In this document: one piece after another, positions 11,511-35,751 of the stretch | Position numbering within the stretch: position 1 is the stretch's first letter | Layout of the letters: each line of letters begins with the position of its first letter | Assembly: GCA_039930405.1 (NCBI GenBank) | Contig: JBDTTW010000221.1 | Span: 1-36,470 of the forward strand | DNA from: a bacterium | Lineage (GTDB): Bacteria; Acidobacteriota; Blastocatellia; Pyrinomonadales; Pyrinomonadaceae | DNA: 36,470 bases | Direction: 5' to 3' | Made by a program: the position numbers and the translations under genes | Notes under the pieces: generated by a model | Seen by the model: the letters and a program-made list of their open reading frames with translations, nothing else | What the model was told of the DNA's origin: nothing | The model's database searches: none

Positions 11511-12827
11511 CTACCAACAGATCCCCTGGTACAGGCCCTCAGCAACTGCTGGTTTCTCAAACAGCCGCACCAGGTCAATTACGATCTGCCCATTCCGAAT
11601 TTCGGATTCAATACTCCGAAACTCTTCAGCTTTGTTACCGATTACCAAAACGTCTGCGTCATTCACGACTTCGGCGACGCTGCCGCGCATCAGTTGCGAA
11701 ATGTGCGGGATCTCGCGTTCGATGTATTGCTTATTGGCGCCGAACAGTTTTGCCAGTGAAACATCTTTATCGTAAATCGCGAGCTGAAGGCCTTTGCCAA
11801 TCAGCGTTTCAATCAGCGTGACCATCGGCGATTCACGCAAATCATCAGTGCCGGCTTTGAAACTAAAGCCCAAAACTCCGACGCGCTTCTTGCCGGTTGC
11901 GAGCACCATGTTTACTGCCCGCTCAATCTGGAGGCGATTACTCGGCAAGATTGCTGAAAGCACCGGCGCTTCCACGTCGAGTTGTTTTGCTTTGTAGTTG
12001 ATGGCGCGCAAATCTTTCGGCAGGCATGAACCGCCGAAGGCGAAGCCCGGCGTGAAGTAGTACGGCGACAAGTTGAGTTTCGTATCTTGCGTGAAGACGT
12101 TCATCACTTCATGACTGTCGATTCCCGCCGCTTTGCAGATGTTCCCAATCTCATTCGCGAAACTAACTTTCAGCGCGTGAAAACAGTTGCACGCATACTT
12201 GACCATCTCGGCGGTTTTGAGCGACGTCACAAACAGCGGCGCTTCAATGCCCTCGTAGAGTTTGCCGATTAACGTCGCCGTTACTTCATCGTCAGCCCCG
12301 ACTAAGGTGAATGGCGGCGCGTAAAAATCTTTCAGCGAACTGCCTTCGCGCAGGAATTCCGGATTGATGCAGACGCCAAAATCCTTGTTTGCCTGCTTGC
12401 CTGAATGCTCTTCCAGCGTCGGAATAACTACGCTTTCGATTGTGCCCGGCAGCATCGTGCTACGAATAACAACGGTGTGTCGTGCAGCTTTGGACTTCAT
12501 CGCCGTGCCAATGTCTTCACAAACTCGCTTGACGTGACTGAGATCCAGGCTGCCATTCGCGTTGCTAGGCGTGCCCACGCAAACGAGCGAAACTTCTGTC
12601 TCGCGAATCGCGTCGCACGGACAAGTGACTGCGCGCAAACGACCAGCGCCAACCATCTCGGCTATCAGCTCTTCGAGCCCTGCTTCGACGATGGGACTCT
12701 TGCCAGAGTTAATGATTCCAACCTTTGTTGGGTTGAGGTCGACGCCGATCACGCCGTGGCCCGCTTTCGCGAAGCACGCTGCTGAGACGCAGCCGACATA
12801 GCCAATACCGAAAACGCTTATTCTCAT
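11511..12827 (-). CDS. algD: GDP-mannose 6-dehydrogenase (AlgD-type nucleotide-sugar dehydrogenase)
   Basis: From the ATG at 12827 it is 438 aa. It is collinear with P. aeruginosa AlgD as I remember that sequence. Matching stretches are MRISVFGIGYVGCVSAACFAKAGHGVIGVDLNPTKVGIINSGKSPIVEAGLEEL, CVGTPS, NPEFLREG, PGFAFGGSCLPKDLRA, SFKAGTDDLRESP and the terminal QGICW. The track ORF start at 12926 would overlap the upstream GT2. The 12827 start lies 7 nt after that stop. Confidence 0.88.
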   Translation of the reverse strand: MRISVFGIGYVGCVSAACFAKAGHGVIGVDLNPTKVGIINSGKSPIVEAGLEELIAEMVGAGRLRAVTCPCDAIRETEVSLVCVGTPSNANGSLDLSHVKRVCEDIGTAMKSKAARHTVVIRSTMLPGTIESVVIPTLEEHSGKQANKDFGVCINPEFLREGSSLKDFYAPPFTLVGADDEVTATLIGKLYEGIEAPLFVTSLKTAEMVKYACNCFHALKVSFANEIGNICKAAGIDSHEVMNVFTQDTKLNLSPYYFTPGFAFGGSCLPKDLRAINYKAKQLDVEAPVLSAILPSNRLQIERAVNMVLATGKKRVGVLGFSFKAGTDDLRESPMVTLIETLIGKGLQLAIYDKDVSLAKLFGANKQYIEREIPHISQLMRGSVAEVVNDADVLVIGNKAEEFRSIESEIRNGQIVIDLVRLFEKPAVAEGLYQGICW

Positions 12828-12834
12828 AAATGAC

Positions 12835-13908
12835 TTAGCCTCGAGGCGATGGATGCACGAGTCCAACCAGGAAGCTCGTTCCCCAGGAAATGTGTATGGT
12901 GAAAAAGATGACCGGCAGCAAAGCAATCATGCGAGCGTCTCTCCCGTACTTTTCACTCGTAAATGCAAAACCAAATCCCGCCAGCGCATGACTGGCCAAC
13001 AGGAAAGTCAACGCATACAGCGCAACAGGACTCAGAAAACCAAGCGCCGCGAGAAAGAGAATTGCGAGAATGAAAGCCGGGGCAGCGGTGTGGCGCAGCT
13101 TCAGCGAACGAGGTTGTTGTTTCAACATTTGCGCTTTCCAATATCCATAGCGCAGGTACTGGCTGACCAACGAACCTAACGTTGCGCGCGCAAAGTAGTC
13201 GCAGTGTTCACTGCGATCGAGCACCACGCGCTCCCCGCGCTCCCGCACCCGGTAGTTGAAATCGTAATCTTCGTTAGTTAACAGCTTTTCATTAAAGCCC
13301 CCCAGCGACTTCCATAACGATCTTCGGAAACAGGCAAACGCAACAGTGTCGACCTCCTCCGGTTCCGCAAAACTTGGCGCGACATCGAGGCGATACTTGG
13401 CATCTCCAATTCCAAAGCGATGAGAAACTGCGACGGCGATTGCGCGGGCCATCGGGCTTTCGGCGCTGGGCCGGACGCGACACGGCATACCGACGACCGC
13501 TGCCCGGCGCTCATTTAGGACGGCCACGCAACGGCGAATGTATCCGGCCGAGGGCGCCGCGTGTGCATCGATGCGCGCAATGATCTCGCCGCGGGCGGCG
13601 GCGATACCGAGGTTAAGCCCATGGGGAATAGTGCGGGTGGGATTGTCGATAATCGTTAAGGCAATGTCCGGGTGCATCCGTTGAAACTCTGTAACCACGG
13701 CACGAGTGCCGTCTTCCGACATGCCATCGACGATTACTATCTCGTAATAGTCCGCTGGGTATTGACCGACAAGATTCGCCAATGCTTTACCGATAAACTT
13801 TTCCTCGTTGTAGCAGGGAATAATCACTGACACACTTTCACTTGCCGGCCACGCAAAAGCGGCCGGAGCGGGAAAGGTCATCAGTTCTGCAAAAGTAGAA
13901 GTGCTCAT
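12835..13908 (-). CDS. Glycosyltransferase family 2, ExoA-like, with C-terminal TM helices
   Basis: GT-A motifs are VSVIIPCYNEEKFIGKAL, EIVIVDGMSEDGT, IIDNPTRTIPHGLNLGIAAARGEIIARIDAHA. The C-terminal third is hydrophobic. The ATG at 13908 (MSTSTF) forms an ATGA overlap with the upstream GT4 stop. The track start at 13989 is less likely. Confidence 0.8.
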   Translation of the reverse strand: MSTSTFAELMTFPAPAAFAWPASESVSVIIPCYNEEKFIGKALANLVGQYPADYYEIVIVDGMSEDGTRAVVTEFQRMHPDIALTIIDNPTRTIPHGLNLGIAAARGEIIARIDAHAAPSAGYIRRCVAVLNERRAAVVGMPCRVRPSAESPMARAIAVAVSHRFGIGDAKYRLDVAPSFAEPEEVDTVAFACFRRSLWKSLGGFNEKLLTNEDYDFNYRVRERGERVVLDRSEHCDYFARATLGSLVSQYLRYGYWKAQMLKQQPRSLKLRHTAAPAFILAILFLAALGFLSPVALYALTFLLASHALAGFGFAFTSEKYGRDARMIALLPVIFFTIHISWGTSFLVGLVHPSPRG

Positions 13909-15187: not shown

Positions 15188-17134
15188 TCAGGCGCGCGCA
15201 AACTCAAGTTGCGATTCTTCAACTGCGGAACCGCGGTCGTTGTCGAAAAACTGTCGTTGCCACATTTCAAAGTTCACCAGCGCCCACAATCTTTCGGCGT
15301 GGTTCTCACCGGCCTGATGTCGCTCCACTAAGGTGCGCACAAAAGCCGGATTAAAGATCCCGCGGTCCACTGTGCGTTCACTGAGGAGATAGTCCTCGAC
15401 GACAGATGCGTACTCGCCCCGGAACCACGATCCAATCGGAACAGGAAAGCCCATCTTGGGGCGCGTCAGAATTTCAGCCGGCAGCACGCTCTTCATACTT
15501 TCGCGCAGAATGTATTTCGTGGTTGCGCCGCGCAGCTTCATGCGCTCCGGCAAGCGCGCGCTGAATTCCACCAACTTGTGATCCAGAAACGGCACGCGAC
15601 TCTCAATCGACGTCGCCATGCTCATCTGGTCCTGCTTCATCAGCAGTTCATGCAAATAGGTTTTTGTGTCCGCGTAAAGCAAACGATCGAGAAATGAGGT
15701 CGCGTCAGTGTTCGTAAAGGCATCGAGCATCCCAGCATAGGGATCAATCGCGCCAACTTGTTCGCGCGCCTTGGCAGTGAACAGCTCTTTTTGCATCGTC
15801 CGCGAGAACACAGCGAAGTTGTCAAAGTAAATGCTCTCGACATCGCTGTTGAGCGCAAGAAAAGTGCGGCGCAGTTTTTGACTCAAGTGTGATTCAGGCG
15901 GCAAGGCCGCTATTCGGTTCTTGATTGCGTTTCGTATATCGCGAGGCAGCAGGGCCTGGTAGCGTTGGCCAAGACTTAGATTTAGCAGCGTCTTGCGATA
16001 ACGCGCGTATCCGGCCAACAACTCATCGCTTCCCTCACCGGTCAGCACAACCTTCACATGCTGGGCGGCGAGTTGTGAAACAAAAAAGAGCGCGACGCTC
16101 GACGGATGCGCAATGGGCTCATCTTCGTGCCACACGAGCTGCGGCAGCGCAGCAAAGAAATCCTTTGGCGTGACAACAACCTCGTGGTGGTTTGTCTTGA
16201 ATGCGCGCGCCACCAGTCGCGCGTATTCCAGTTCATTAGCTTCACGTTCCTGAAAGGCGACCGAAAAGGTTTTGACAGGTTCGTCAACCATGCCGCTCAT
16301 GACGGCGGCGATAGCTGAAGAATCGATTCCACCCGACAGAAACATGCCCAACGGCACGTCGGCCATCAGCCGCAGCCGCACCGATTCGCGAAAGAGTTCG
16401 GACCACTCGGCGACGTAGTCGCTATCGCTGCGCCTGTCGTCACCAGTTCTCACAAAACTAACGTCCCAATATTTATTGATGCGGATTACGCCATCGCGCC
16501 AAAGCAAGGTGTGGCCGGGCAACAAACGCTTGATTCCGGCGAAAAGAGTCTCTTCGCCCGACGTTGCGTGGTTTGCGAGATAATCCGGCAGCGCCTGGTA
16601 ATTGAGTTCAGCTTTTACTTCGCCTGTTTCCAACAGCGCCTTTATTTCAGAAGCGAAGTAAAACGAACCATCGCTGGTTTGCGCATAATAAAGCGGTTTC
16701 ACTCCCAAACGATCGCGCGCCACAAACAATTCACGGTCCTGTTGGTCCCAGATCGCGAAGGCAAACATGCCGCGCAGGTGCTCGACACAACTTTGGCCAT
16801 GTTCTTCGTAAAGATGAAGAATCGTCTCGGTGTCGCAATGCGTTTCGTATCTGTGTCCACGTGCTTCGAGGGATTCGCGAAAGTCCGCGTGGTTATAGAT
16901 TTCTCCGTTGTAAACAATGTGAAGTGTGCCGTCCTCGTTGGTCATCGGTTGATGACCGCTGGCGACGTCAACGATGCTCAGCCTTCTATGACCCAGGCCC
17001 ACTCGCCCATCAATGAACAGACCCGCATCGTCTGGACCACGATGCGTCAACACGTCGCGCATGCGTTCCAGCATCGCCGCACTCACTGTGCGCTGCGATC
17101 TGTTTGATAAGGCTATGCCGTTAATTCCGCACAT
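15188..17134 (-). CDS. asnB: Asparagine synthetase B-type glutamine amidotransferase (exosortase/EPS-associated paralogue 1)
   Basis: 648 aa with an Ntn nucleophile (MCGINGIA), the GATase-II core (RGPDD, HRRLSIVD, YNGEIYN) and the PP-loop FLSGGIDSSAIAAV. Confidence 0.88.
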   Translation of the reverse strand: MCGINGIALSNRSQRTVSAAMLERMRDVLTHRGPDDAGLFIDGRVGLGHRRLSIVDVASGHQPMTNEDGTLHIVYNGEIYNHADFRESLEARGHRYETHCDTETILHLYEEHGQSCVEHLRGMFAFAIWDQQDRELFVARDRLGVKPLYYAQTSDGSFYFASEIKALLETGEVKAELNYQALPDYLANHATSGEETLFAGIKRLLPGHTLLWRDGVIRINKYWDVSFVRTGDDRRSDSDYVAEWSELFRESVRLRLMADVPLGMFLSGGIDSSAIAAVMSGMVDEPVKTFSVAFQEREANELEYARLVARAFKTNHHEVVVTPKDFFAALPQLVWHEDEPIAHPSSVALFFVSQLAAQHVKVVLTGEGSDELLAGYARYRKTLLNLSLGQRYQALLPRDIRNAIKNRIAALPPESHLSQKLRRTFLALNSDVESIYFDNFAVFSRTMQKELFTAKAREQVGAIDPYAGMLDAFTNTDATSFLDRLLYADTKTYLHELLMKQDQMSMATSIESRVPFLDHKLVEFSARLPERMKLRGATTKYILRESMKSVLPAEILTRPKMGFPVPIGSWFRGEYASVVEDYLLSERTVDRGIFNPAFVRTLVERHQAGENHAERLWALVNFEMWQRQFFDNDRGSAVEESQLEFARA

Positions 17135-22004: not shown

Positions 22005-23960
22005 TCATTTCCTGATCTGATTCGCGTTTGTCCGCGTAAATCCGCGGCTGAAGTCTTCCTCCGCTGCCACGTTCTTATCTACGTACTGCCGGTGCCACAG
22101 CTCGAGCATCAGTAAAGCCCAAAGCGCCATTGAATGATCGCGTCGTCCGCGTTCATGTTCATCGAGCATTACCGTCACATACTCTTTCGTGACGTAACCC
22201 CTTTGCGTGGTTCTGGGGTCGTTTAAGGTGTCGCGGATGCGTTCGCGCAGTTGCTGGTTGATCCAATGCTGAATGGGAACGCCAAACCCCATCTTGGGCC
22301 GGTTCAAAATTTCGCGTGGCACCAGGTTCGCAACCGCCTGCTTTAACAAATGCTTCGTTTCCGTCCCCATCATTTTCAAACCCGCCGGAATGCGCGTGAC
22401 GAATTCGATGAGCTTGTGATCAAGCAAAGGCACGCGCGCTTCCAACGAGACGGCCATGCTCATGCGATCGACTTTTGTAAGAATATCGCCCGGCAAGTAG
22501 GTCTTGCTGTCGATGTAGAGCAGCGAGTCAAGCTCGGCATCTGTTCTGACGTTGCCGCTCAGTTCTTGAAAATATGCGCGCAGGTGACTGCCGCTTCTAA
22601 GTTGATTGCTGAAGTCCGCGGTATACAGCGCACCTTTGTTAAGTCCACTAAAGACCGAAACGTTGTCGAGGTACCGCGTGATCGGATCAAGCGAGACGTT
22701 GTGCAGATAGTTTCTTCCCCAGGCGCTGTGCGGCAAACTCCGGCTTAATGGACTCATTAAGCCTTCACGCACAAACCGCGGCAGCAAATCGAATTTCCCA
22801 CGCCGCTGCTCGGTGAGATAACGCGTGTAACCGGCAAACAACTCGTCGCCGCCGTCGCCGGTCAGCACGACCTTGACGTGTTCACGCGCCAGCTTGGAAA
22901 CAACATAGGTTGGAATCGCGGAAGAATCTGCGAACGGCTCGTCGAAATGCCAGGCGAGTTGGTCGACAACTTCGCAGATGTCGGGCGTGACCAAAAACTC
23001 GTGATGCTCTGTCTGAAATTTTTCTGCAGTAAGCCGTGCGTATTTCAGTTCATCAAAACTGTCTTCATTGAAGCCTATAGAAAACGTCTTCACTGGCTGG
23101 TCCAGTTGGCGCGCCATCAAACCGACCACCGTGCTGGAATCAACTCCTCCGGAAAGAAAAGCGCCCACCGGCACGTCAGAAACGAGTCGCAGCTTTACGG
23201 ACTCCTCAAGTAACGAACGCAACTCGTCGAGGTAATCCGCCGCTCGATGCCCGTTGCCATTCGTGTGGTAGTCAAAATCCCAATAGCGTTCGACCGACAA
23301 GCGACCGCCGGCAAATGTCAGGTGATGCCCGGGCGAAAGTTTTTCAACGTTCTTGAAAATGCTGAGCGGGTCGGGGACGTAACCCAGCGAGAAGTACGCA
23401 TCCAGCGCGCGCGGATTCGTGTTGCGTTCTACATCCGGATGTTGCAGCAGCGTCTTTAACTCCGAACCAAAAACAAAAGTGCCATTGCGCGTGATGGAGT
23501 AGTACAGCGGCTTCTTGCCCACTCGATCGCGGGCGATGAAAAGTTTTTGCTGTCGCTCGTCCCAGATCGCAAACGCGAACATGCCCCGCAACTGGTCGAC
23601 GCACAATGCCCCGAACTCTTCATAGGCATGAACAATCGTCTCGGTGTCGGAATTCGTCTTGAATTCGTGGCCGCGCGCTTGCAGCAGGCTTTGCAGCTCG
23701 CGGTAGTTATAGATTTCCCCGTTGAAGACGATGGTTACTGAACCGTCTTCGTTCGAGATTGGTTGGTGTCCACCGCTGAGATCAATGATGGACAGCCGAC
23801 GCATTCCAAGCGCGACGCCAGGCTGGACCAATACGCCTTGATCGTCGGGACCGCGGTGCGTGATGACTTGGCACATACGATCGAGGATCTGCGCGCGCTC
23901 ATCCGCGCCGCGCGCTTTCGCCGCGTCCCATTGATCTATGAATCCGGTAATGCCACACAT
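22005..23960 (-). CDS. asnB: Asparagine synthetase B-type glutamine amidotransferase (paralogue 2)
   Basis: 651 aa with MCGITGFI, RGPDD, MRRLSIIDL, FNGEIYN and the PP-loop FLSGGVDSSTVVGL. By eye it is clearly diverged from paralogue 1, so it is not a recent duplicate. Confidence 0.88.
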   Translation of the reverse strand: MCGITGFIDQWDAAKARGADERAQILDRMCQVITHRGPDDQGVLVQPGVALGMRRLSIIDLSGGHQPISNEDGSVTIVFNGEIYNYRELQSLLQARGHEFKTNSDTETIVHAYEEFGALCVDQLRGMFAFAIWDERQQKLFIARDRVGKKPLYYSITRNGTFVFGSELKTLLQHPDVERNTNPRALDAYFSLGYVPDPLSIFKNVEKLSPGHHLTFAGGRLSVERYWDFDYHTNGNGHRAADYLDELRSLLEESVKLRLVSDVPVGAFLSGGVDSSTVVGLMARQLDQPVKTFSIGFNEDSFDELKYARLTAEKFQTEHHEFLVTPDICEVVDQLAWHFDEPFADSSAIPTYVVSKLAREHVKVVLTGDGGDELFAGYTRYLTEQRRGKFDLLPRFVREGLMSPLSRSLPHSAWGRNYLHNVSLDPITRYLDNVSVFSGLNKGALYTADFSNQLRSGSHLRAYFQELSGNVRTDAELDSLLYIDSKTYLPGDILTKVDRMSMAVSLEARVPLLDHKLIEFVTRIPAGLKMMGTETKHLLKQAVANLVPREILNRPKMGFGVPIQHWINQQLRERIRDTLNDPRTTQRGYVTKEYVTVMLDEHERGRRDHSMALWALLMLELWHRQYVDKNVAAEEDFSRGFTRTNANQIRK

Positions 23961-23964
23961 AAGA

Positions 23965-25608
23965 TTATTTCGCAGGCGATCCTTTGAGAGGTTCGGATAA
24001 GAAATCGGGCAGGTGCGCAGTGCGGTGGGCCAGCAGTTCAGACTGACTCTCCAGTGTCGTATCTTTATTTTCCGGCTTTAACAGCAGCATTGAATTCCTA
24101 ACATCTGCCAACGCCCGGCGGCCTGAAGGAATCAGCAACAAAACCAGCAGGCTCGTGATGACGATGAGACTGCCGCAAACAGTCAGCCCGACCACCGGAT
24201 TTCCCAACTTAAAGTAATGTCGAAAAGCCAGACACGCGAAGATTCCCGCGGTCGAAGAAAGCACGAACGGCGCCAGCAGCTTATAGAAGTCTTTGGTGCG
24301 CACCGGACCCGTGCGGCCAACGAACCAGTACATCAGTGGATGCGTAACGAAGATGCGGGTAAGCGAATAGGATGCGGCGACGCCCGTTGCACCCCAGGGC
24401 AAGCCCACAACTATCGAAAGGATTGAGAGAGGCGCACTGATTATTGACCAATAGAGGAGATCGCGTCCGCGGCCCTGGGTTACTAACAGTGAGCCGGCGG
24501 TGTTTATCAGTGGCTGGATCAATCCGGCAAGACCCATGAAGACTAGTATCGGTGCGGCACCTCTCCACTGAGACCCAAGCACGATTCCGACCAGCCAGTC
24601 GGACGCCACGATTAGCAAAGCGACCACGGGCATCACCAGCAGCAAAACCTTTTCCATAATTCGCAGGTAAGCCCTGCGATAACGTTCGGGAGAATCCGCC
24701 AGTCTGCTGAGCGCGGGTACGGTAACTGCCATGACCGGCTCGTGCACCTGGTCGGTAGGAAGCCCAACGAGCTGCGCGGCTTTGTTGTAGAGGCCCAACG
24801 ATTGTGGGCCCCAAAATCTTCCGATCAGTAGGTTGTCTGCGTTCTTGGAAAAATAGTTCACGGTGCCATAGCCGGTTATGTTTCCTCCGAAGCTCAGCAT
24901 CGAACGCACGCCTGTGTTGCGTCTCGGTAAGCCCGGGCGCCATTCGCAAAGAGTCCACACCAGAATTGCGTCTATGGTGAGGAGTGCCAATTGGCTATAA
25001 ACGAGTGACCAATAACCAAAGCCATACCAGGCGAAGGCGACACCAACAACATAACCACCGACCATGGCGGCAAGGGCGACTGCGCTAAGTGCCATAAATC
25101 GCATTTGACGCTTCAAGAGGGCTTCATGCTGCACAGTCAGACCACCAATAAGAAAACCGAGGGCGCTGACAATCGCGATCATCGTCAGACGCGAGTCGCC
25201 GTAAAACCATGAGATAACCGGCGCGAGCAAAATCATTACCAGCATCGTGAGTACGCTCAAGGCCAGGTTCACCCAGAACAGAGTGCTTATCTGCTCGGAA
25301 GTGATCTCAGATTTCTGGACCGTTGCGGTGGCCAGACCCAGGTCCTTGAACATAACGATAAAGTTCGTCGCTACCGCCACCATTCCGATCAAGCCATAGT
25401 CCTGAGGACTCAACAGCCGCGCCAGAATTGCAGTCGCGACGATGCTGACAGCAAACTTCATCCCGTGCGAAGCCATAGTCACTACACCCCCGCGCGCGGT
25501 GCGTCCGCCCAGGCTGTCCATCAGATGATCGGTACGAAAGAACCGTTCAGAGCGGCTGGATCCGTTCGGTTCTGACTCTTCCGTCGTCGATGTTTGGTTA
25601 AGCGTCAT
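23965..25608 (-). CDS. wzx: Wzx-type polysaccharide flippase (MOP/PST superfamily)
   Basis: 547 aa with about 12-14 TM helices. The N-terminal region, MKFAVSIVATAILARLLSPQDYGLIGMVAVATNFIVMFKDLGLATATVQ, is typical of PST-family 'polysaccharide biosynthesis protein' exporters. Confidence 0.82.
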   Translation of the reverse strand: MTLNQTSTTEESEPNGSSRSERFFRTDHLMDSLGGRTARGGVVTMASHGMKFAVSIVATAILARLLSPQDYGLIGMVAVATNFIVMFKDLGLATATVQKSEITSEQISTLFWVNLALSVLTMLVMILLAPVISWFYGDSRLTMIAIVSALGFLIGGLTVQHEALLKRQMRFMALSAVALAAMVGGYVVGVAFAWYGFGYWSLVYSQLALLTIDAILVWTLCEWRPGLPRRNTGVRSMLSFGGNITGYGTVNYFSKNADNLLIGRFWGPQSLGLYNKAAQLVGLPTDQVHEPVMAVTVPALSRLADSPERYRRAYLRIMEKVLLLVMPVVALLIVASDWLVGIVLGSQWRGAAPILVFMGLAGLIQPLINTAGSLLVTQGRGRDLLYWSIISAPLSILSIVVGLPWGATGVAASYSLTRIFVTHPLMYWFVGRTGPVRTKDFYKLLAPFVLSSTAGIFACLAFRHYFKLGNPVVGLTVCGSLIVITSLLVLLLIPSGRRALADVRNSMLLLKPENKDTTLESQSELLAHRTAHLPDFLSEPLKGSPAK

Positions 25609-25629: not shown

Positions 25630-27384
25630 TCACGACTTCCTGAGCAGAATCGCCACCGTGCGTTCTTCACTGTCACCATCCACGTAGGTGGCAACTGGAC
25701 CCAGTTCAAAGTTTGCAAGCGCTCTTAACTCTGTCAGGTAGAGCTCGAAATCTTTGTAGGTTTCGCCTTCGTGTCCTTCATAAATCATGAACGACCAGGG
25801 AATAGCTCTTAAGGCATCGAGCCAGTTGACGTGACCACGAATCGCTAAATAAGAAATCGCGCAGCCGTCGAGCGACCGAGCGACGTGCGCGGGCACGTCA
25901 GTTATCATTGGTTGTGTGCGTGCTATGTCGCCCGGCGTAGTTGAGAAACGCGTGCAGCCCAAAGCCAACAGCATTCGTTCCGTATGAGGTGTGGTCGTGG
26001 CGCGATCCCAGCCGTGACACCATTTGGCGCCTAACTTCAGATACTGGGCCATCATCATTCCGATGTTGCAACCGACATCCAAAACCACGCGGTCTGCGAC
26101 GGTGACGTTTGCTTCTTTGAATAGCCGGACCAATGTCTTCATCCGGTTTGCGACATCACGTTTGGCCGGAAGGCTGACACCAGGCACAGACTGATAAAGA
26201 TAACGCCCCCCGCGGAGCAGCGCTGTGTCGCCAAAATGGGTTTGCTCGCCCGCGTCGGTGGCCAGGCGCGCCAGGAAGCTTTCATAATCGCCAAGCAGGA
26301 AATTCTGAAAGTCGATGTACCGGAACTGCCCGGTGCTATCGATCAGCGCGTTGTTCCCACAAGCGGGACATTCGAATTCCGGGTCGTCGAAACCTTCGGG
26401 CAGGATGACCTTGATGACGCCCTGCTCATGAAGCTCACGGAGCCTATCCACGCCGGCTTTACATTGCCAAATGCTGGGCGGATTGTTTCCCACGTCCTGA
26501 ATTACATACGCAGTCCAAAGCTGCTCGCCGCATTGCAAGTTAACCAGGTCATAAAGCCGCGGCCCGATTCCCATTGCGTAAAGAAAGTTTGCGACAAGTG
26601 AGAGGTGCCGGTGCCCATGGACCATGCCCAGCTGGATCTTGCTGTCGCCTTTTGCGCGACCAAGAATGTACCCACTCTCGTCGAGTCCACCCGGTTTTTT
26701 CACGAGTTTTAGGCCCGCGTCCGGCGGATAATTCTCAACTAACGATTGAAACGCTGTGCCTCTTAACGACTCTGGCGACAAATAAACTGCGTGCGATCCT
26801 TCCTGGTAAGATGGTTCCATTGACCGCACGTATTCGATCAGCGAGACACCAGCAGGCACATCCGAAACGACTATGTTTCGTGGCGCTTGAACTGGTAGCT
26901 GCTCCTGCCATTTTGTTTGTTTGCCGAAGCTCTCTTTAAGGAGGCGGCTGACCCCAACTCTGCGCATGGTTCGCAGTTCGGAGGTCAACTGATCCTTAGT
27001 CTTACCAGCAGCGGCGTACGTCGCTGGGAAGTGCACTGCGAGCCAACCTTGCGATGAGAGCTTGCCTGCTTCGTCCACTAACTGCTGAGCTTCAGCATAA
27101 TTTGCAAAGGCCTTCTTACCTTCCTCGGTCAATGTCCAATGGTTTCGGTCGGCTGACAGCCAGCCGGCTTTGATTGGACCAACACAGGAAAACGTAAAGT
27201 TTTCAAATGAAGATAGGATACGGTGCCCGTTCCCGTTGCCATGGCCCTTGCCAGCCGGCGGGTGAAGCGAGTTGGTTAGTTCGTCCCAGAGGTCATTGCT
27301 GGACAAACCTTGAGGATGTTGCGCGAGTATTTGAAACACTCGTTGCACAGTCAGCGCCACTTTTTGTTTGTTAGAGATTTTCAT
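25630..27384 (-). CDS. Three-domain protein of unknown function: Mrr_N-like winged helix, ATP-binding-fold-like central region, FkbM-like class I SAM methyltransferase
   Basis: The track ORF runs to 27420. The ATG at 27384 (MKISNKQ) limits the overlap with the upstream Wzy-like gene to 14 nt. Residue numbers follow the track ORF. Residues ~17-107: FQILAQHPQGLSSNDLWDELT...PIKAGWLSADRNHWTLTEEGKKAF. Central region: KKPGGLDESGYILG, AYVIQDVG, ECPACGNNALIDSTGQFRYIDFQNF. C-terminal region: RVVLDVGCNIGMMMAQYLKLGA. Confidence 0.6.
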   Translation of the reverse strand: MKISNKQKVALTVQRVFQILAQHPQGLSSNDLWDELTNSLHPPAGKGHGNGNGHRILSSFENFTFSCVGPIKAGWLSADRNHWTLTEEGKKAFANYAEAQQLVDEAGKLSSQGWLAVHFPATYAAAGKTKDQLTSELRTMRRVGVSRLLKESFGKQTKWQEQLPVQAPRNIVVSDVPAGVSLIEYVRSMEPSYQEGSHAVYLSPESLRGTAFQSLVENYPPDAGLKLVKKPGGLDESGYILGRAKGDSKIQLGMVHGHRHLSLVANFLYAMGIGPRLYDLVNLQCGEQLWTAYVIQDVGNNPPSIWQCKAGVDRLRELHEQGVIKVILPEGFDDPEFECPACGNNALIDSTGQFRYIDFQNFLLGDYESFLARLATDAGEQTHFGDTALLRGGRYLYQSVPGVSLPAKRDVANRMKTLVRLFKEANVTVADRVVLDVGCNIGMMMAQYLKLGAKWCHGWDRATTTPHTERMLLALGCTRFSTTPGDIARTQPMITDVPAHVARSLDGCAISYLAIRGHVNWLDALRAIPWSFMIYEGHEGETYKDFELYLTELRALANFELGPVATYVDGDSEERTVAILLRKS

Positions 27385-28813
27385 GCAGGTCTGGTTTGGC
27401 GGCCCCATCCGAGCCATCAACGGTCAGCAGGCGGTGCAAACAAAAGGCGTAAGCGACCAGGTAATAGACGTACCACTGGTAAGCGACTGAGGCGAAAAAA
27501 CTGACAACCATGTAACCAATTAAACTCGCCTGTAAGCCGATTGCCAGATAATGAAGCGGTGGGTTCCGTTTCGCGACGCGCGTTGCGTGTTCAATCTTTC
27601 GCAGACGACCCAGCGGTGTTAGCAAAAACGAAAGATAGACGATGAGGGCGCCGAGACCCATTTCTGATGCCACTTGAGTATAGGCATTGTGGGTCGCCTT
27701 GTTTGAGTTTGAGTAAAGAATGTAGTTGTCCATACCGACGCCAAGCAACGGGTGTCGGGCGGCAATCAGGATTGAACGCTTTAGATCGTCTGTGCGAGCG
27801 ATGGCCGAGTCGTCACTAGTGGTCGAGATGCGGCTGCGATAAGCGCTCGGTGCGAGAGCAATCGTCGCCAGCATGATCGCCAGCGCAATGCCGCCAAAAA
27901 TAACTCGATTGCGGCTCGCGAGTTTCCAAACCATAAACGCGACCACGCACATAAAACCGAGGAAGCCGCCGCGTGAAAACGTCGCGACCAGACCAGCCAC
28001 CAGCAACAAAGAGCAGCTCAGGTAAAACGTTTTCTTCAGAACTCCGCGCGAACCAATCATGAGGACCAGGCTGATGGGAATCATGGTTACAAGATGGAGC
28101 GCCAGGTCGTTGGGGTTACTGAAGAGTCCGCCGATCAAGCCGGCAATGCGCCGGCCCTCAAGCGCCAGGTGCCCACGCAGATAGTCGGTAAATGCGGCCA
28201 AACTCAACACGCAACTGGAAAACAATACGAGCAAGATCAGTGCCTGCAAGCGTTTCTCAGTTCGCAGGACATTCACCATCACGATGAACATCAATATGAC
28301 CTTGCAAAATTCGATGAAGCTTTGCAGCGCTTTTGCGGGCTCAAGGGCGAAAGGAACCGAGAGGATACCGGTCAGTAAGAGGAGGAATGCCAGCTTAACT
28401 TCGCGCGGTTTGGCTGTAAGTCTGTTTTCCAGTCCAAGCTGGGTTGGAACAAAGACGGCAAGCGTCGCGAGGGCCGCGACCAATGCGCTTTTGGACATCC
28501 AGGAAAGCGACGGGAACAATTCGTAAGGCCGAAAATATACGAGAAATGTGAAGACAAAGAGTCCGGCAAAACTGAGACTATGCCCGCTTTTCGCGAACCA
28601 GTTTTCTGCCTTCAGACTGGTATCCGGCACTAGCGGCGGGGCCAATTGGTCCACTGGTCTGGTAGATGAAGTGATTTGCAATCGCACCGGCACGTCCGAG
28701 CTCGGCAGGCTGCGACAACGCTGCCAATTATCCGCAACCGGCGCAGGTAATTGACGCCGGTGCGGCGCTGCGGTGACTGGCTCGTAGTCGTCTAGTTGAA
28801 GTTTCTTCGACAT
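27371..28813 (-). CDS. Wzy_C / O-antigen-ligase-family membrane protein; candidate Wzy polymerase or exosortase-associated O-glycosylation ligase
   Basis: 480 aa. A ~95-aa cytoplasmic N-terminus precedes about 10 TM helices. The family motif is ATHNAYTQVASEMGLGALIVYLSFL. It is the first gene of the long array and lies downstream of a terminator-like hairpin. Confidence 0.75.
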   Translation of the reverse strand: MSKKLQLDDYEPVTAAPHRRQLPAPVADNWQRCRSLPSSDVPVRLQITSSTRPVDQLAPPLVPDTSLKAENWFAKSGHSLSFAGLFVFTFLVYFRPYELFPSLSWMSKSALVAALATLAVFVPTQLGLENRLTAKPREVKLAFLLLLTGILSVPFALEPAKALQSFIEFCKVILMFIVMVNVLRTEKRLQALILLVLFSSCVLSLAAFTDYLRGHLALEGRRIAGLIGGLFSNPNDLALHLVTMIPISLVLMIGSRGVLKKTFYLSCSLLLVAGLVATFSRGGFLGFMCVVAFMVWKLASRNRVIFGGIALAIMLATIALAPSAYRSRISTTSDDSAIARTDDLKRSILIAARHPLLGVGMDNYILYSNSNKATHNAYTQVASEMGLGALIVYLSFLLTPLGRLRKIEHATRVAKRNPPLHYLAIGLQASLIGYMVVSFFASVAYQWYVYYLVAYAFCLHRLLTVDGSDGAAKPDLHENL

Positions 28814-30145: not shown

Positions 30146-30702
30146 GACAATTTTTTTCGATCAGGGGTGGACTTTAGATTTTGGAGGGAGCGTTTTCGCT
30201 TATTTGCTACTTGTCTAGGCGACAGAAATGTCGCGGGTCCTGGAATGGGCGACAGTCCGACTGAGATAAAGAGTGGTAAGGCGGTGGAATCTTTTTTACG
30301 GAAAAAGAATCTTCGTTAGTGAATCGGGGCTATTCTGTAGGTCATTGATTTTGCCCGGGTATTCCTGAGAAGACAGGCGGGCTGGCCCTGGAACGAGGGT
30401 CAAAGAGCAGGAGCTCTCTGACTTGACGCCGAGCATCTTAGCAACAATCCTCTCGATGAGCAACAAGTTTTTACATTTCCGGCAAGTTACTGATTCCAGA
30501 CTACAAAACTGGCGGCAGGAGTAAGAAAGTTGTGGAATGCAAACCCAATTGGGTCTATAAAGTCAGTGAACAAGCGGATGACTTTGCGGCTGTGTAGTTG
30601 AGGTTTCGCAAGCTAATTTGCCTCCTTGCTTCCTCTACTGATAGTTAAATTCTGTGCTTGCAAACGGCGCTCAGTGAATCTTGAGTAGATAGGGGCAAAC
30701 AA

Positions 30703-31038
30703 ATGAATTCTGCAACCGCAAAGTCGTTCGCCAAAAAGCTGGCCTGCCCTTCGTCAAACCTTCTACTTTCATTCAGCTCAAAAACGTTGGCGCCTGAAAT
30801 CAACCTTCTGGTGAAGCATCATCTAGCCGCTTGCGATTTTTGCTATTGCGAGCTACCGCTCTTGTCCTTCTACACCGTGCCGGCGAAAGGCGAAACGCGA
30901 ACCCCAGAACTTCCTGTCAATCTCAGGGCGTTGGCTGAGTCAATTTTGCTGGGAAACAGATTGGCAAGGGCGGGGTGTGCAGATGGGAAAAAAGAATTCA
31001 ATACTAGCGAAGCCGAAGACGCACCGAGTTCTAATTGA
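30703..31038 (+). CDS. Small soluble protein with a zinc-finger anti-sigma (zf-HC2 / ZAS) N-terminal motif
   Basis: 111 aa with an ATG start and AGGGG 8 nt upstream. CPSSNLLLSFSSKTLAPEINLLVKHHLAACDFCYCEL matches the anti-sigma pattern C...L...L.pe....v..HL..C..C..EL, including HxxxCxxC. No TM helix is present. Confidence 0.5.
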   Translation: MNSATAKSFAKKLACPSSNLLLSFSSKTLAPEINLLVKHHLAACDFCYCELPLLSFYTVPAKGETRTPELPVNLRALAESILLGNRLARAGCADGKKEFNTSEAEDAPSSN

Positions 31039-31066
31039 GTCAGTTCTGCCGCTTGGTTTCTCACCT

Positions 31067-32987: not shown

Positions 32988-34481
32988 TCAGGTTACGGGC
33001 GCAGGTTCCGCCATTTGCGGATTCCCATTCGTGCTCTCTCGCCTTTTCTTTTTGCGTCGGGAATGCACTTCCTCGACCCGGCCATTCATTGTTGCTAACG
33101 CAGCCAGAATCAGGAACAGCAAAGTATTGGACGTTGTATGCAAGGTGAAATCGAAAAAGCTATGGACCAGGACGGCGAAACATCCGGCGAGCGCTCCGGT
33201 CGCCACGCCCCGCCTGAAATCGTCGCGCGACTCGCGCCGCGCAAATCCCATCCGAAACAACGCCGCCAGAAAGACGAGACCAAGAACAGCCCCGACAATA
33301 CCGCCGTCGGACAGTACCTGCAAATAGTCGTTATGGGCCTGCTCTAATCGTGAAAGTCCGTTTCGGGTGTCATAGCCTGTGTAAACAACTCCAAAAGCTC
33401 CCAGCCCCGTACCGATTACGGGATGGTTTTTTATGATGTCAACTGTCACGCCCCAAAAATGCGCGCGGCCCGTGGTCGGGTCATCAGCATTAACGGAGCC
33501 CACGATGCGGGTCAAGGCATCTTCTCCGCCCAGCAACACCACGCCGCCAAAGATAGCGATCACCATCGCCAGTGCTAAGCCGGCTTTCAATGCAGCACTC
33601 TTTATGCGTGGTTTCTTTTCGGTGTGTTTCTTCCGATGGCGGCGCTTAATTCCCATCAGCGAAACCAGGAAAAGCAATTCGGCCACCAGGCTGACAATGC
33701 CGCCGCGGGAATTTGTCATGACCAGGGCCACAGCCATCAAGCCCGCGGCGAATAGGTAAATAAACTTTTTCTCTCGTTCAACTGAGTTCGAAAAGATCAA
33801 CCCCAGTGGCAACGCCATGGTCAGTTCCATGTAACCCGCAAAGTGATGGCGATTGATAAAGGGGCCGAAGGCCTGGCTTTGCGGCAGCTCGCGGACCCAA
33901 TAAACCCGCGTGGGACTGGCAAAAGACTGGGTCAAACCGAAGATTGCCAGAACAAATCCGAATACGGTGATCGTTCTGACGAGCAAGCGGAGACGTTTCG
34001 GCGTATCGACAAAAACCAACGTTGCTGCCAGGTAAATCAGCAACGCGATGACCTCGATCACGATGAAGCGAGTTGCGTATGGGTCGAATGACAAACTCCG
34101 CACGAGCGGCAGCAGTGTCCCGCCACTGTCTGGATTTCGCAGTGGCAGCAGTTGAACCAGACCCAATGCCAGGACACCGATGAGCGGAAGCTGCAGCATG
34201 TTTTTGCTGAGTCGCACCGTGCCCAAACTCCAGCTATCAGCTACCCAAAGCACCAGCAGCACGACGCTGCCAAGGTAAAAAACCGCGAGTGCCCAGGCAT
34301 GCACGGTGCCGTAAGCAAGCGCCGAGAGAATAATTGCCAAACAGATAATCAAAAACGAGAAACGGCTGGCCAGCGTGTGGCGAATACGATAGCTGACATA
34401 GCCCTTGGCCTCGGCCAAACGCAATTCCGTTTCCTGCGAAACGAGGGCGCTATTTTCCGGACTTGAGGTCGAAGTCGTCAT
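32988..34481 (-). CDS. Second Wzy_C / O-antigen-ligase-family membrane protein
   Basis: About 497 aa from the ATG at 34481; the track TTG start is at 34496. It is polytopic, with the motif EQAHNDYLQVLSDGGIVGAVLGLVFL and a basic C-terminal tail, RRKKKRRES. It overlaps the end of the upstream TPR gene by about 32 nt. Confidence 0.75.
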   Translation of the reverse strand: MTTSTSSPENSALVSQETELRLAEAKGYVSYRIRHTLASRFSFLIICLAIILSALAYGTVHAWALAVFYLGSVVLLVLWVADSWSLGTVRLSKNMLQLPLIGVLALGLVQLLPLRNPDSGGTLLPLVRSLSFDPYATRFIVIEVIALLIYLAATLVFVDTPKRLRLLVRTITVFGFVLAIFGLTQSFASPTRVYWVRELPQSQAFGPFINRHHFAGYMELTMALPLGLIFSNSVEREKKFIYLFAAGLMAVALVMTNSRGGIVSLVAELLFLVSLMGIKRRHRKKHTEKKPRIKSAALKAGLALAMVIAIFGGVVLLGGEDALTRIVGSVNADDPTTGRAHFWGVTVDIIKNHPVIGTGLGAFGVVYTGYDTRNGLSRLEQAHNDYLQVLSDGGIVGAVLGLVFLAALFRMGFARRESRDDFRRGVATGALAGCFAVLVHSFFDFTLHTTSNTLLFLILAALATMNGRVEEVHSRRKKKRRESTNGNPQMAEPAPVT

Positions 34482-35751
34482 ACCAGACAGTTCCAAAAAT
34501 CGGACAGACCGGCTGATCAGGACAGCCCGGCCGGTAAACTTTTAGTTTGATCGCTTCAGCATTGGCCGCAGTCTTAAACGACAGCGTTAGCCTTTGCCAA
34601 TTATTATCTCCGCTCGGCGCGGCTGCTGAACTCGCAAGCACTTTGCTTTCGTCTGCAGCATCAAAAATCGCAACGGTCGGCGTCGATGCGCTCTCTAACC
34701 TCTCGGTTTGCACGTAGCATTCAAAATCATATTGCGTGTTCGGAGCTACCGGTATCAATTGCGATACATCAATGTTTTCGACATGAGAACGTACTTGAAA
34801 GAAAAGCCTGAGACTGTGACTTCCTGAATGAGCGACGCGCGCATCTATGCCTATCTGCAACTGCGGGGCAGACTGAACTTGCCAACCAAATAAAGCTCCT
34901 GGACCATGCGCCAGGTTACCTTCCAAGCCACCATCAACAACTTTTCCCAGCTCCACACGATACAAGGGGCCGGGCGCTACGTCGTTCCAAACCTCCATCG
35001 CCTGATGGAAACGTTTCGCGTTGATCAACTCGGCGATAATCAAATCGGCAACCTGCCGGTTCTCCCGTTTTTCGATTTCCGTCAACGAATTCCAAAGTCG
35101 CAGTCCTTCGTCAAACCGCGAGCGCTTGATCAGGTAACTGGAAAACCGCGCGCGCACTTCCGCGGTATTTCCGATCGCGGATTTCTGCGCTTCAAAGTCG
35201 TCCTTGTTGATCTGCCAGGCAAAATTGAAGAGCTGGGCTTGTAGTTCGGGATTGGCCTCACTGGCTTTTCGTAATTCTTCAAACCCCTCAGCGTAACGGT
35301 CCGAGCGCAGCAACAAGTTTCCCAAATACCAGCGCGGAAAGGCATAAGCCGGCGCGAGTTGAACTGCTTCACGCAATGATTTTTCTGCGCTGGCAAAATC
35401 ACCGGCCTGCTCCTGCGCCTCGCCCAAAGACATCCAGAAGCGGTAGTCGTTTGGGGACAGGCTCACCGCCCGTTCATACTCCGCCACGCTTTGAGCAATT
35501 TGATCGGGAGGCATCTCGACTTGGATGATGTTTCCGAGGCGCCAGTGTGTCAGCGGATCTTTGGGCGCCCAGCCAGCCGCCATTTGCGCAACTTCCAGGC
35601 GACGGGTCTCCGGAGAGAAGTATTCCGCGATGGTATTCCCCAGGTACCAACGCACGACAAACCAGGATGCCAACACTGCCACCAGCAAAGTGAGGAGCAT
35701 GATGATTTTCAGAGGCGCGCGCGCCTTCAATTGCATTAACTGGTCAGGCAT
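34450..35751 (-). CDS. Membrane-anchored TPR-repeat protein with a C-terminal jelly-roll / carbohydrate-binding-module-like domain
   Basis: 433 aa with an N-terminal TM helix (IIMLLTLLVAVLASWFVV). TPR units include AVSLSPNDYRFWMSLGEAQEQAGDFASAEKSLREAVQLAPAYAF. The beta-rich ~160-aa C-terminus (GSHSLRLFF...NWQRLTLSFKT...TVWYDDFDLK) resembles CBM4/9-type sandwiches. Confidence 0.65.
   Translation of the reverse strand: MPDQLMQLKARAPLKIIMLLTLLVAVLASWFVVRWYLGNTIAEYFSPETRRLEVAQMAAGWAPKDPLTHWRLGNIIQVEMPPDQIAQSVAEYERAVSLSPNDYRFWMSLGEAQEQAGDFASAEKSLREAVQLAPAYAFPRWYLGNLLLRSDRYAEGFEELRKASEANPELQAQLFNFAWQINKDDFEAQKSAIGNTAEVRARFSSYLIKRSRFDEGLRLWNSLTEIEKRENRQVADLIIAELINAKRFHQAMEVWNDVAPGPLYRVELGKVVDGGLEGNLAHGPGALFGWQVQSAPQLQIGIDARVAHSGSHSLRLFFQVRSHVENIDVSQLIPVAPNTQYDFECYVQTERLESASTPTVAIFDAADESKVLASSAAAPSGDNNWQRLTLSFKTAANAEAIKLKVYRPGCPDQPVCPIFGTVWYDDFDLKSGK

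Follow-up and report, generated by a model that had tools for sequence, protein, structure and literature searches.

Why should a soluble protein that no family database recognises be encoded, in one bacterial lineage after another, beside the flippase of an exopolysaccharide pathway? The question is raised by a stretch of DNA from a Pyrinomonadaceae bacterium (Acidobacteriota, Blastocatellia; GenBank assembly GCA_039930405.1, contig JBDTTW010000221.1), which we analysed over its whole length of 36,470 nt and refer to as the window. The window is one large minus-strand exosortase/EpsI exopolysaccharide locus, and the gene in question (the target) lies between a gene for a Wzy_C-type membrane protein and the gene for a Wzx flippase. 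On balance, we favour the reading that the target is a soluble, cytoplasmic tailoring enzyme coupled to Wzx in a Wzx/Wzy-dependent, exosortase-associated pathway, and that it would combine an ATP-binding, kinase-like step with a methyltransferase step on the lipid-linked repeat unit. The family to which the target belongs is real, well conserved and unannotated. Its catalytic loop is unusual and its link with flippase genes is striking; its mechanism we infer.

Hundreds of conserved homologues rule out a chance open reading frame, and the gene is real. In its longest form the frame comprises 596 codons on the minus strand, from a TTG at 27420 to the end of the stop codon at 25630. The start, however, is most likely the ATG at 27384 rather than this TTG, because homologues have 575-585 residues and N-termini of the form MKISNKQ; this choice gives a protein of 584 residues. 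Its start lies within the end (TAA) of the upstream Wzy_C-type gene, with an overlap of 14 nt if counted from the ATG (50 nt from the TTG), and 21 nt separate its stop from the ATG (25608) of the downstream Polysacc_synt_3 (Wzx) gene. No transmembrane segment is predicted in the target. An initial annotation, made from the letters of this DNA alone, had given the same reading frame, the overlap with the Wzy_C gene and the distance to the flippase; these coordinates were confirmed on checking, and the motifs that it quoted were all found in the order that it gave. Residue numbers here are counted from the ATG at 27384 and are lower by about 12 than those used previously.

That the target belongs to a polysaccharide pathway had also been proposed, and comparison of loci bears this out. 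We scored 69 distinct loci that encode target homologues with a Wzx hidden Markov model built from window, locus and fusion sequences. At least 66 of the 69 are polysaccharide loci, and the flippase is encoded next to the target homologue or fused to it in 54 (52 immediately adjacent and 2 fused). The adjacent wzx genes are on the same strand as the target homologue, downstream of it in 30 loci and upstream in 22. In 2 further loci Wzx is encoded elsewhere in the locus, and it was not found with this model in the remaining 13, ~ 4 of which have truncated flanks. The linkage outlasts changes in gene order and holds in Gemmatimonadota, Planctomycetota, Anaerolineales and Methylomirabilota; a Planctomycetota locus, for example, has the order Wzx, target, Wzy_C and family 2 glycosyltransferase (GT2). 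A longer arrangement, consisting of an uncharacterised gene (unk398), Wzy_C, target, Wzx, an AsnB-like gene, a family 4 glycosyltransferase (GT4) and GT4/heparinase, is kept down to ~ 50% identity. No other gene is linked as tightly to the target genes as wzx.

Gene fusions take the association further. Among 150 family representatives with mutual identity of ≤ 50%, on which the conservation figures given below are also based, five join Wzx and the target core in a single protein (P0126, P0131, P0225, P0236 and P0264). In other representatives the core is fused to a GT2 (P0169) or to a PAP2 lipid phosphatase (P0256), and one fusion carries an extra methyltransferase (P0184). These last three kinds of fusion point to lipid-linked glycan or phosphate chemistry. 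One Acidobacteriota metagenome-assembled genome (MAG), CAWGWK01, carries two target paralogues on different contigs; the copy in locus L045 has the full conserved synteny, and no Wzx gene was detected beside the copy in L036.

The protein had been described as an orphan. It is one only in the sense that its relatives are all uncharacterised and have no model in Pfam or NCBIfam; the family itself is large. In database searches 445 proteins match the target at E ≤ 1e-3, the best 120 of them over their full length and with 49-95% identity, and mean column identity over 31 diverse members is 63%. A HMMER scan of 1.84 billion cluster representatives returned 773 at E ≤ 1e-3, including 246 at E ≤ 1e-30. 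The named homologues are all labelled ‘hypothetical protein’ and come from MAGs of Pyrinomonadaceae and other Acidobacteriota; a cluster look-up of the distant relatives likewise returned only ‘hypothetical protein’. In GTDB species genomes we located 67 loci with target homologues, all of them from MAGs. The majority are in Pyrinomonadaceae/Blastocatellia, with further loci in Terriglobia, Gemmatimonadota, Beta-, Gamma- and Deltaproteobacteria, Nitrospirae, Methylomirabilota, Omnitrophota, Planctomycetota and Anaerolineales, and the nearest homologue among them is encoded in a Blastocatellia MAG (95% identity). Pfam and NCBIfam, searched with the target to E ≤ 10, gave no match, nor did PADLOC. 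Searches of these three collections with the 31 homologues and with isolated N-terminal segments gave nothing significant beyond a weak Mrr_N signal (see below). Literature searches found no description of the family, the nearest item being an Actinoplanes Wzx/Wzy cluster in which a kinase-like protein and a methyltransferase are encoded by separate uncharacterised genes.

What kind of protein, then, is so consistently placed beside Wzx? An AlphaFold2 model of the target built on 31 homologues (predicted local distance difference test, pLDDT, 82.4; predicted template modelling score 0.76) has a winged helix at residues 1-95, helices at 99-162, an alpha/beta region at 165-383, a poorly modelled segment at 384-410 and a Rossmann-type domain at 411-584. 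The three-module architecture anticipated by the initial annotation is seen in this model. Judging from the alignments, the core that is conserved across phyla is the kinase-like domain, the conserved loop that follows it and the methyltransferase.

By its modelled fold, the C-terminal domain is a class-I S-adenosylmethionine (SAM)-dependent methyltransferase. With the full model as query, the Foldseek matches in the PDB are exclusively class-I SAM methyltransferases (probability 1.0, E 8e-7 to 3e-5), among them CmoB (8e-7), RumA, DnrK, MfnG and METTL5. Motif I (VLD436-V-G-C-N-I-G442) and the acidic residue at the end of beta2 (D460, in GWD460) are conserved in 92-94% of the representatives, and G476, R479, E536 and R575 in 94-100%. 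The region of motif I also gives weak, sub-threshold matches to PRMT/CARM1 in phmmer and profile searches of PDB sequences, and two family members have weak Methyltransf_9 matches; no Pfam methyltransferase model was significant. The domain had been called FkbM-like. The class-I SAM fold is upheld by Foldseek, but the assignment to FkbM is not: the corresponding models (Methyltransf_21, PF05050; TIGR01444) are unmatched at E ≤ 1 in the target and in 31 homologues, the nearest folds are CmoB, RumA and DnrK, and only the DVGCNxG motif is alike. With CmoB-type and other class-I methyltransferases (PDB 4qnv, 1uwv and 1tw3) the target shares the seven-strand Rossmann-type fold, motif I and the acidic residue of beta2. 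It differs from these enzymes in its fusion to a kinase-like domain, made through a conserved HFG...YLYQxxPG segment for which they have no counterpart.

Few parts of the family are as well conserved as this inter-domain segment (HFGD..LRGGRYLYQSVPG..KR). It carries the motifs HFG, YLYQ, PG and KR, with F384, G385, Y397, Q398, P401 and R409 near-invariant, and residues 384-395 have a pLDDT of < 50. The segment may be an active-site lid, or a substrate- or Wzx-binding loop that becomes ordered only in a complex.

The central domain would supply the second activity. Modelled separately (residues 160-400, pLDDT 81), it finds protein kinases in 50 of its 50 best Foldseek matches in the PDB. These include CK2alpha (E 1.3e-3, probability 1.0), RIO2, EGFR, CDK6, CaMKK2 and ROCK1 and, at rank 22, WbdD (4azt), the bifunctional mannose kinase and phosphate methyltransferase of E. 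coli O9a (PMC3482155). No ATP-grasp fold is among the 50. Of the earlier suggestion of an ATP-grasp or protein-kinase-like fold, the second alternative has therefore survived and the first has not.

The order of motifs in the central domain also fits a kinase fold. A beta3 strand with G-L-K226 comes first and then a hinge strand, TAYV(I/V)(Q/E)(D/H)V. Next are a loop with N345 as its last residue, a pair of short strands and the sequence Y-I-D358-F-Q360-N-F, the equivalent of the DFG motif; the strand order beta7-beta8-Asp is canonical in the model. When assigned from their place in the model rather than by superposition, the kinase ligand residues are K226 (the beta3 Lys, conserved in 89% of the representatives), N345 (the catalytic-loop Asn, 89%) and D358 (the DFG-type Asp, 82%). 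D279 (97%), D/E336 (84%) and Q360 (76%) are also conserved. The 13 residues from N345 to D358 equal the spacing of the Mg-binding residues N356 and D369 in WbdD (PMC3482155). Like RIO kinases, the lipopolysaccharide core kinases WaaP and WaaY, and Kdo kinase, the central domain is a small (~ 220 residues) bilobal kinase fold, and RIO2 is one of its best fold matches. We take its IDFxQ-type metal loop to resemble the IDxxQ motif of RIO kinases. The target differs from all of these in having no profile-level similarity to them, and its catalytic loop reads [D/E]-F-x-C-P-x-C-x-x-N where these atypical kinases have H-x-D-x-x-x-x-N.

A number of observations weigh against the reading of the target as a two-step, Wzx-coupled enzyme, and most of them concern the central domain. 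Its fold scores are marginal (E ≥ 1.3e-3, TM 0.38/0.29). No kinase profile (Pkinase, APH, RIO1, Kdo and others) in Pfam or NCBIfam matched at E ≤ 10, and profile searches of PDB chain sequences, with the full family and with the central domain, returned no kinase at E ≤ 10. When the central-domain profile was aligned to E. coli WaaP and WaaY with hhalign, the probability was < 1% and not significant; the non-significant local alignment with WaaY pairs CNGNL..YVDFQ with HRGNFI..IIDLS. Where kinases have the catalytic Asp of their HRD motif, five residues before the Asn, the target has P340 within a C-P340-x-C342-x-x-N345 loop (Pro in 82%), and the helix equivalent to alphaC (residues 258-270) has no conserved Glu. 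Because the HRD Asp is replaced by Pro and no alphaC Glu is evident, the domain could be a pseudokinase or could carry out a different chemistry. D279 and D/E336 might replace the catalytic Asp or the alphaC Glu; four residues before the Asn, Asp is common in other clades (38%) and Ala is found in the window. As judged from motifs and model, the domain retains the ligands for nucleotide and metal and lacks the canonical base, and is either an atypical transferase or a nucleotide-binding pseudokinase. At the level of the whole family, all members come from MAGs or metagenomes, and one homologue (L066, 8001..9332 in a Gemmatimonadales MAG, 31% identity) lies outside any polysaccharide locus. Its gene is flanked by those for ClpB, a phage-type integrase and a DnaB-like helicase, and may be on a mobile element.

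The missing catalytic Asp makes one rival serious, namely that the target is a methyltransferase only. In that case, which we regard as possible, a dead pseudokinase would bind the substrate, a nucleotide or the flippase, and the protein would O-methylate or methyl-esterify a sugar of the repeat unit. In its favour are the conserved Pro at the catalytic position, the Ala of the window where Asp is common in other clades (38%), and the lack of any kind of kinase profile match. The methyltransferase motifs are the best-conserved part of the protein, and extra methyltransferases recur in these loci. Yet 82-89% of the representatives, at mutual identities of ≤ 50%, have the ATP-Mg ligands of true kinases (Lys, Asn and Asp), the retention of D279 and D/E336 would also be unusual for a dead domain, and the kinase-like and methyltransferase domains were never convincingly found apart.

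If the target is instead the Wzx-coupled tailoring enzyme that we prefer, it would partner the flippase and act at the inner membrane face on the undecaprenyl-diphosphate-linked repeat unit, just before flipping. The kinase-like domain would bind ATP-Mg via Lys226, Asn345 and Asp358 and phosphorylate, or otherwise ATP-activate, a sugar position; the methyltransferase domain would then methylate that phosphate, or a nearby hydroxyl or carboxylate. What the analysis shows are the folds assigned, the pattern of conservation and the genomic coupling to Wzx, and it is with these that a substrate, a phosphotransfer, a methyl acceptor and an order of reactions are proposed here. We expect that the target uses SAM and probably ATP, and that tailoring is by methylation, possibly with phosphorylation. 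By analogy, an invariant, Arg/His-rich methyltransferase pocket would suit an anionic acceptor, given that Arg and His residues permit phosphate methylation in WbdD (PMC3482155). A WbdD-like methyl-phosphate product is attractive but unproven.

A more specific proposal, which we consider unlikely, is that the enzyme licenses the substrate of Wzx. It would place a small anionic tag, for example methyl phosphate, on the finished undecaprenyl-diphosphate-linked repeat unit, and the cognate or fused Wzx would require this tag for export. Were this so, the system would be the Wzx/Wzy counterpart of WbdD-Wzt quality control, achieved by an independently evolved kinase-fold enzyme without the canonical Asp (C-P-x-C-x-x-N).

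The N-terminus of the target invites a different thought, that the protein is a regulator. It folds in the AlphaFold2 model as two helices, a loop, two helices and a beta hairpin; the elements of the winged helix are helices at residues 5-22, 29-40 and 60-72 and a hairpin at 76-85, with pLDDT of 80-90 outside a Gly/Asn-rich loop (42-56) of low model confidence. The Mrr_N profile (PF14338) matches 5 of 21 homologue N-terminal segments (best E 1.5e-5), and for the N-terminus encoded in the window the score is only 12.7 bits (E 0.14; gathering cut-off 29.5). The Mrr_N-type winged helix of the initial annotation is therefore present as a topology, with an Mrr_N signal that is weak and detected at the level of the family. 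The phmmer and profile searches of PDB sequences, made with the full family, the central domain and the N-terminus, returned between them only the sub-threshold PRMT/CARM1 matches noted above and an irrelevant designed protein. The target shares the winged-helix topology and an AGW(L/I)...W.LT.EG motif with the Mrr_N domain of Mrr-type restriction enzymes, but it has no nuclease domain and its winged helix is attached to a glycan-pathway enzyme. We rejected a role as a defence-system protein in view of the lack of a PADLOC match and the polysaccharide context.

Only ~ 18 of the 150 best family representatives (those covering the first 20 profile positions) have the winged helix. Most relatives have 460-490 residues and begin at profile position ~ 110-175; most of the distant ones (~ 460-490 residues) cover only positions ~ 110/160-581, and the helical linker is partly kept in the shorter relatives (~ 480 residues) as a basic helical N-terminus. 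The winged helix is an accessory added in one lineage, Pyrinomonadaceae/Blastocatellia, and lies outside the core mechanism. A regulator would use it to bind DNA, and the enzyme-like domains would sense ATP, SAM or an intermediate so as to control the exopolysaccharide operon, in the manner of BirA or PutA. The good model confidence of the winged helix and the 920-nt, low-GC non-coding region that precedes the operon fit such a role. However, some 132 of the 150 best representatives do without the domain, the Wzx, GT2 and PAP2 fusions put the core at membrane machinery, and regulation could at most be an added function in one clade. We consider it improbable.

How close is the target to WbdD, whose control of chain length had been put forward as a precedent? 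Both combine a kinase-fold domain and a class-I SAM methyltransferase in one polypeptide (in the target by predicted fold), both have an Asn and an Asp 13 residues apart at the predicted or known Mg site, and in both the methyltransferase site has many Arg and His residues. Action on a lipid-linked glycan at the cytoplasmic face, with a functional tie to the exporter, is a further likeness if our proposal for the target holds. In WbdD, however, an N-terminal methyltransferase is followed by the kinase and a C-terminal coiled-coil, and the catalytic D351 is essential (PMC3482155). The target has the opposite domain order, starts with an extra winged helix, ends at the methyltransferase without a coiled-coil in the AlphaFold2 model, and has P340 in place of D351 (Asn minus 5). 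Profile searches of PDB chains, including 4azt, detected no sequence homology at E ≤ 10. Furthermore, WbdD serves an ABC transporter (Wzm/Wzt) pathway, where it partners WbdA or the carbohydrate-binding module of Wzt, whereas the target partners Wzx in a Wzx/Wzy pathway and no ABC transporter was found among the window genes. With these differences in domain order, coiled-coil, homology, catalytic Asp and ABC-transporter context, the target falls outside the WbdD family, despite a likeness in logic. It is best filed as an independently assembled variant of the bifunctional kinase-fold/methyltransferase theme in glycan tailoring, linked to Wzx.

These comparisons bear on whether the target could be a WbdD-like chain terminator, with a methyl-phosphate cap that sets the length of the polymer. 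The pairing of the two folds, the presence of WbdD among the fold matches and the invariant Arg/His residues, which recall those that methylate phosphate in WbdD, would be in keeping with that role; the reversed order, the absent coiled-coil and catalytic Asp, the lack of similarity to WbdD chains and the type of pathway are not. Wzy polymerisation is periplasmic, and a cytoplasmic enzyme cannot reach a growing chain end there. Chain termination by the target is for this reason mechanistically unlikely, and we give it very little credence.

Least credible of all is the other suggestion of the initial annotation, an ATP-grasp-type ligase that amidates or esterifies a uronic acid of the repeat unit: the locus does make a uronic acid through its nucleoside diphosphate (NDP)-sugar dehydrogenase, and the D-x-Q-N motif is loosely like the E-x-N metal site of ATP-grasp enzymes, but the fold matches are uniformly protein kinases and two AsnB-type amidotransferases in the locus already cover amidation.

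How Wzx recognises its substrate is a long-standing question, and to it may be added how decoration of the repeat unit is coordinated with export. The present enzyme family, large and unannotated, has its genes next to wzx or fused with it in at least 8 phyla, which makes it a concrete candidate for a flippase-coupled modification step; the natural Wzx fusions would suit structural work. To the protein kinase fold it contributes a divergent branch whose catalytic loop is non-canonical. Finally, it flags abundant and unexplored exopolysaccharide chemistry in uncultured soil Acidobacteriota (Pyrinomonadaceae/Blastocatellia), whose matrix polymers bear on soil aggregation.

The remainder of the window (Table 1) encodes an exosortase, EpsI, a fragment of a polyprenyl glycosylphosphotransferase, several GT4 and GT2 glycosyltransferases, a GT4-heparinase II/III fusion, an NDP-sugar dehydrogenase, an acyl-CoA-ligase-like enzyme, two AsnB-type ‘XrtA/PEP-CTERM’ amidotransferases and two Wzy_C proteins.

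Table 1. Features of the target gene and of the surrounding exopolysaccharide locus (positions in the window; residues counted from the ATG at 27384).
Feature	Position	Strand	Basis
Target coding sequence, 584 residues	25630..27384 (longest open reading frame to TTG 27420)	-	Open reading frame list, translation, homologue N-termini
Winged helix, residues 1-95, Mrr_N-like	27100..27384	-	AlphaFold2 secondary structure, Mrr_N matches in homologues
Helical linker, residues 96-162	26899..27099	-	AlphaFold2 helices 99-162; alignment
Atypical protein-kinase-like domain (predicted), residues 163-383	26236..26898	-	Domain model, Foldseek, conservation
Inter-domain segment HFG..RGGRYLYQSVPG..KR, residues 384-410	26155..26235	-	Near-invariant residues; low model confidence
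Class-I SAM-dependent methyltransferase domain (predicted), residues 411-584 and stop	25630..26154	-	Foldseek, conservation
Wzx-type MOP flippase, conserved partner of the target	23965..25608	-	Polysacc_synt_3 2.9e-89
Wzy_C / PEP_O_lig_1-like multi-pass membrane protein (polymerase or ligase type)	27371..28813	-	Wzy_C 1.3e-16; TIGR03097 2.5e-37, below cut-off
Second Wzy_C-type protein	32988..34496	-	Below TIGR03097 cut-off
XrtA/PEP-CTERM-type AsnB-like amidotransferase	22005..23960	-	TIGR03108 2.2e-223, below cut-off
AsnB-type paralogue of the preceding entry	15188..17134	-	
GT4 glycosyltransferase fused to heparinase II/III-like domain, 1190 residues	17144..20716	-	
NDP-sugar dehydrogenase	11511..12926	-	AglM and TuaD models, below equivalog cut-offs
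unk401, second uncharacterised soluble family, 401 residues	8010..9215	-	Fusion P0121, neighbourhood
unk398, soluble protein, 398 residues	28949..30145	-	
Low-GC region, likely promoter/regulatory	30146..31066		

Another uncharacterised protein of the locus, unk401, has no match in Pfam, NCBIfam, PADLOC or PDB sequences. It is encoded in 11 of the 69 related loci, mostly beside the target, and P0121 (1028 residues) unites the unk401 family and a full-length target in one protein. It is probably a second unknown enzyme of the same step or pathway as the target, and its His-rich motifs (EIHLHHG and GFVHGNW) hint at a metal-dependent hydrolase or esterase.

The Wzy_C-type protein encoded upstream of the target has ten hydrophobic segments. 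Both Wzy_C proteins fall below the cut-off of TIGR03097 (‘putative O-glycosylation ligase’, exosortase-associated), and the two may divide the roles of polymerase and ligase between them. An AsnB-like gene occurs in 34 of the 69 loci, including those of Gemmatimonadota and Gammaproteobacteria; in one locus (L002) it is joined with a class-I methyltransferase in a protein of 911 residues.

The initial annotation had named an AlgD homologue and, with it, mannuronate as the substrate. The dehydrogenase of the window scores best as a UDP-glucose 6-dehydrogenase or generic NDP-sugar type and has no GDP-mannose dehydrogenase model among its matches, and both identifications were abandoned.

The product of unk398 has no family match and is encoded in 31 of the 69 loci, always directly upstream of the Wzy_C-target pair in Pyrinomonadaceae. 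Because its C-terminus (LEVAAVLGVSDSLVSDYRRRIE) resembles a sigma-70 region-4 or helix-turn-helix segment, it may be a locus-specific regulator. Upstream of unk398 lie ~ 920 nt without a convincing open reading frame and with the lowest GC content of the window (0.489 vs ~ 0.54), which are likely the promoter/regulatory region of the operon that runs through unk398, Wzy_C, target, Wzx and beyond. The heparinase II/III-like half of the GT4 fusion is of the polysaccharide lyase or epimerase type, and in several related loci, L002 among them, the two halves are encoded by separate genes.

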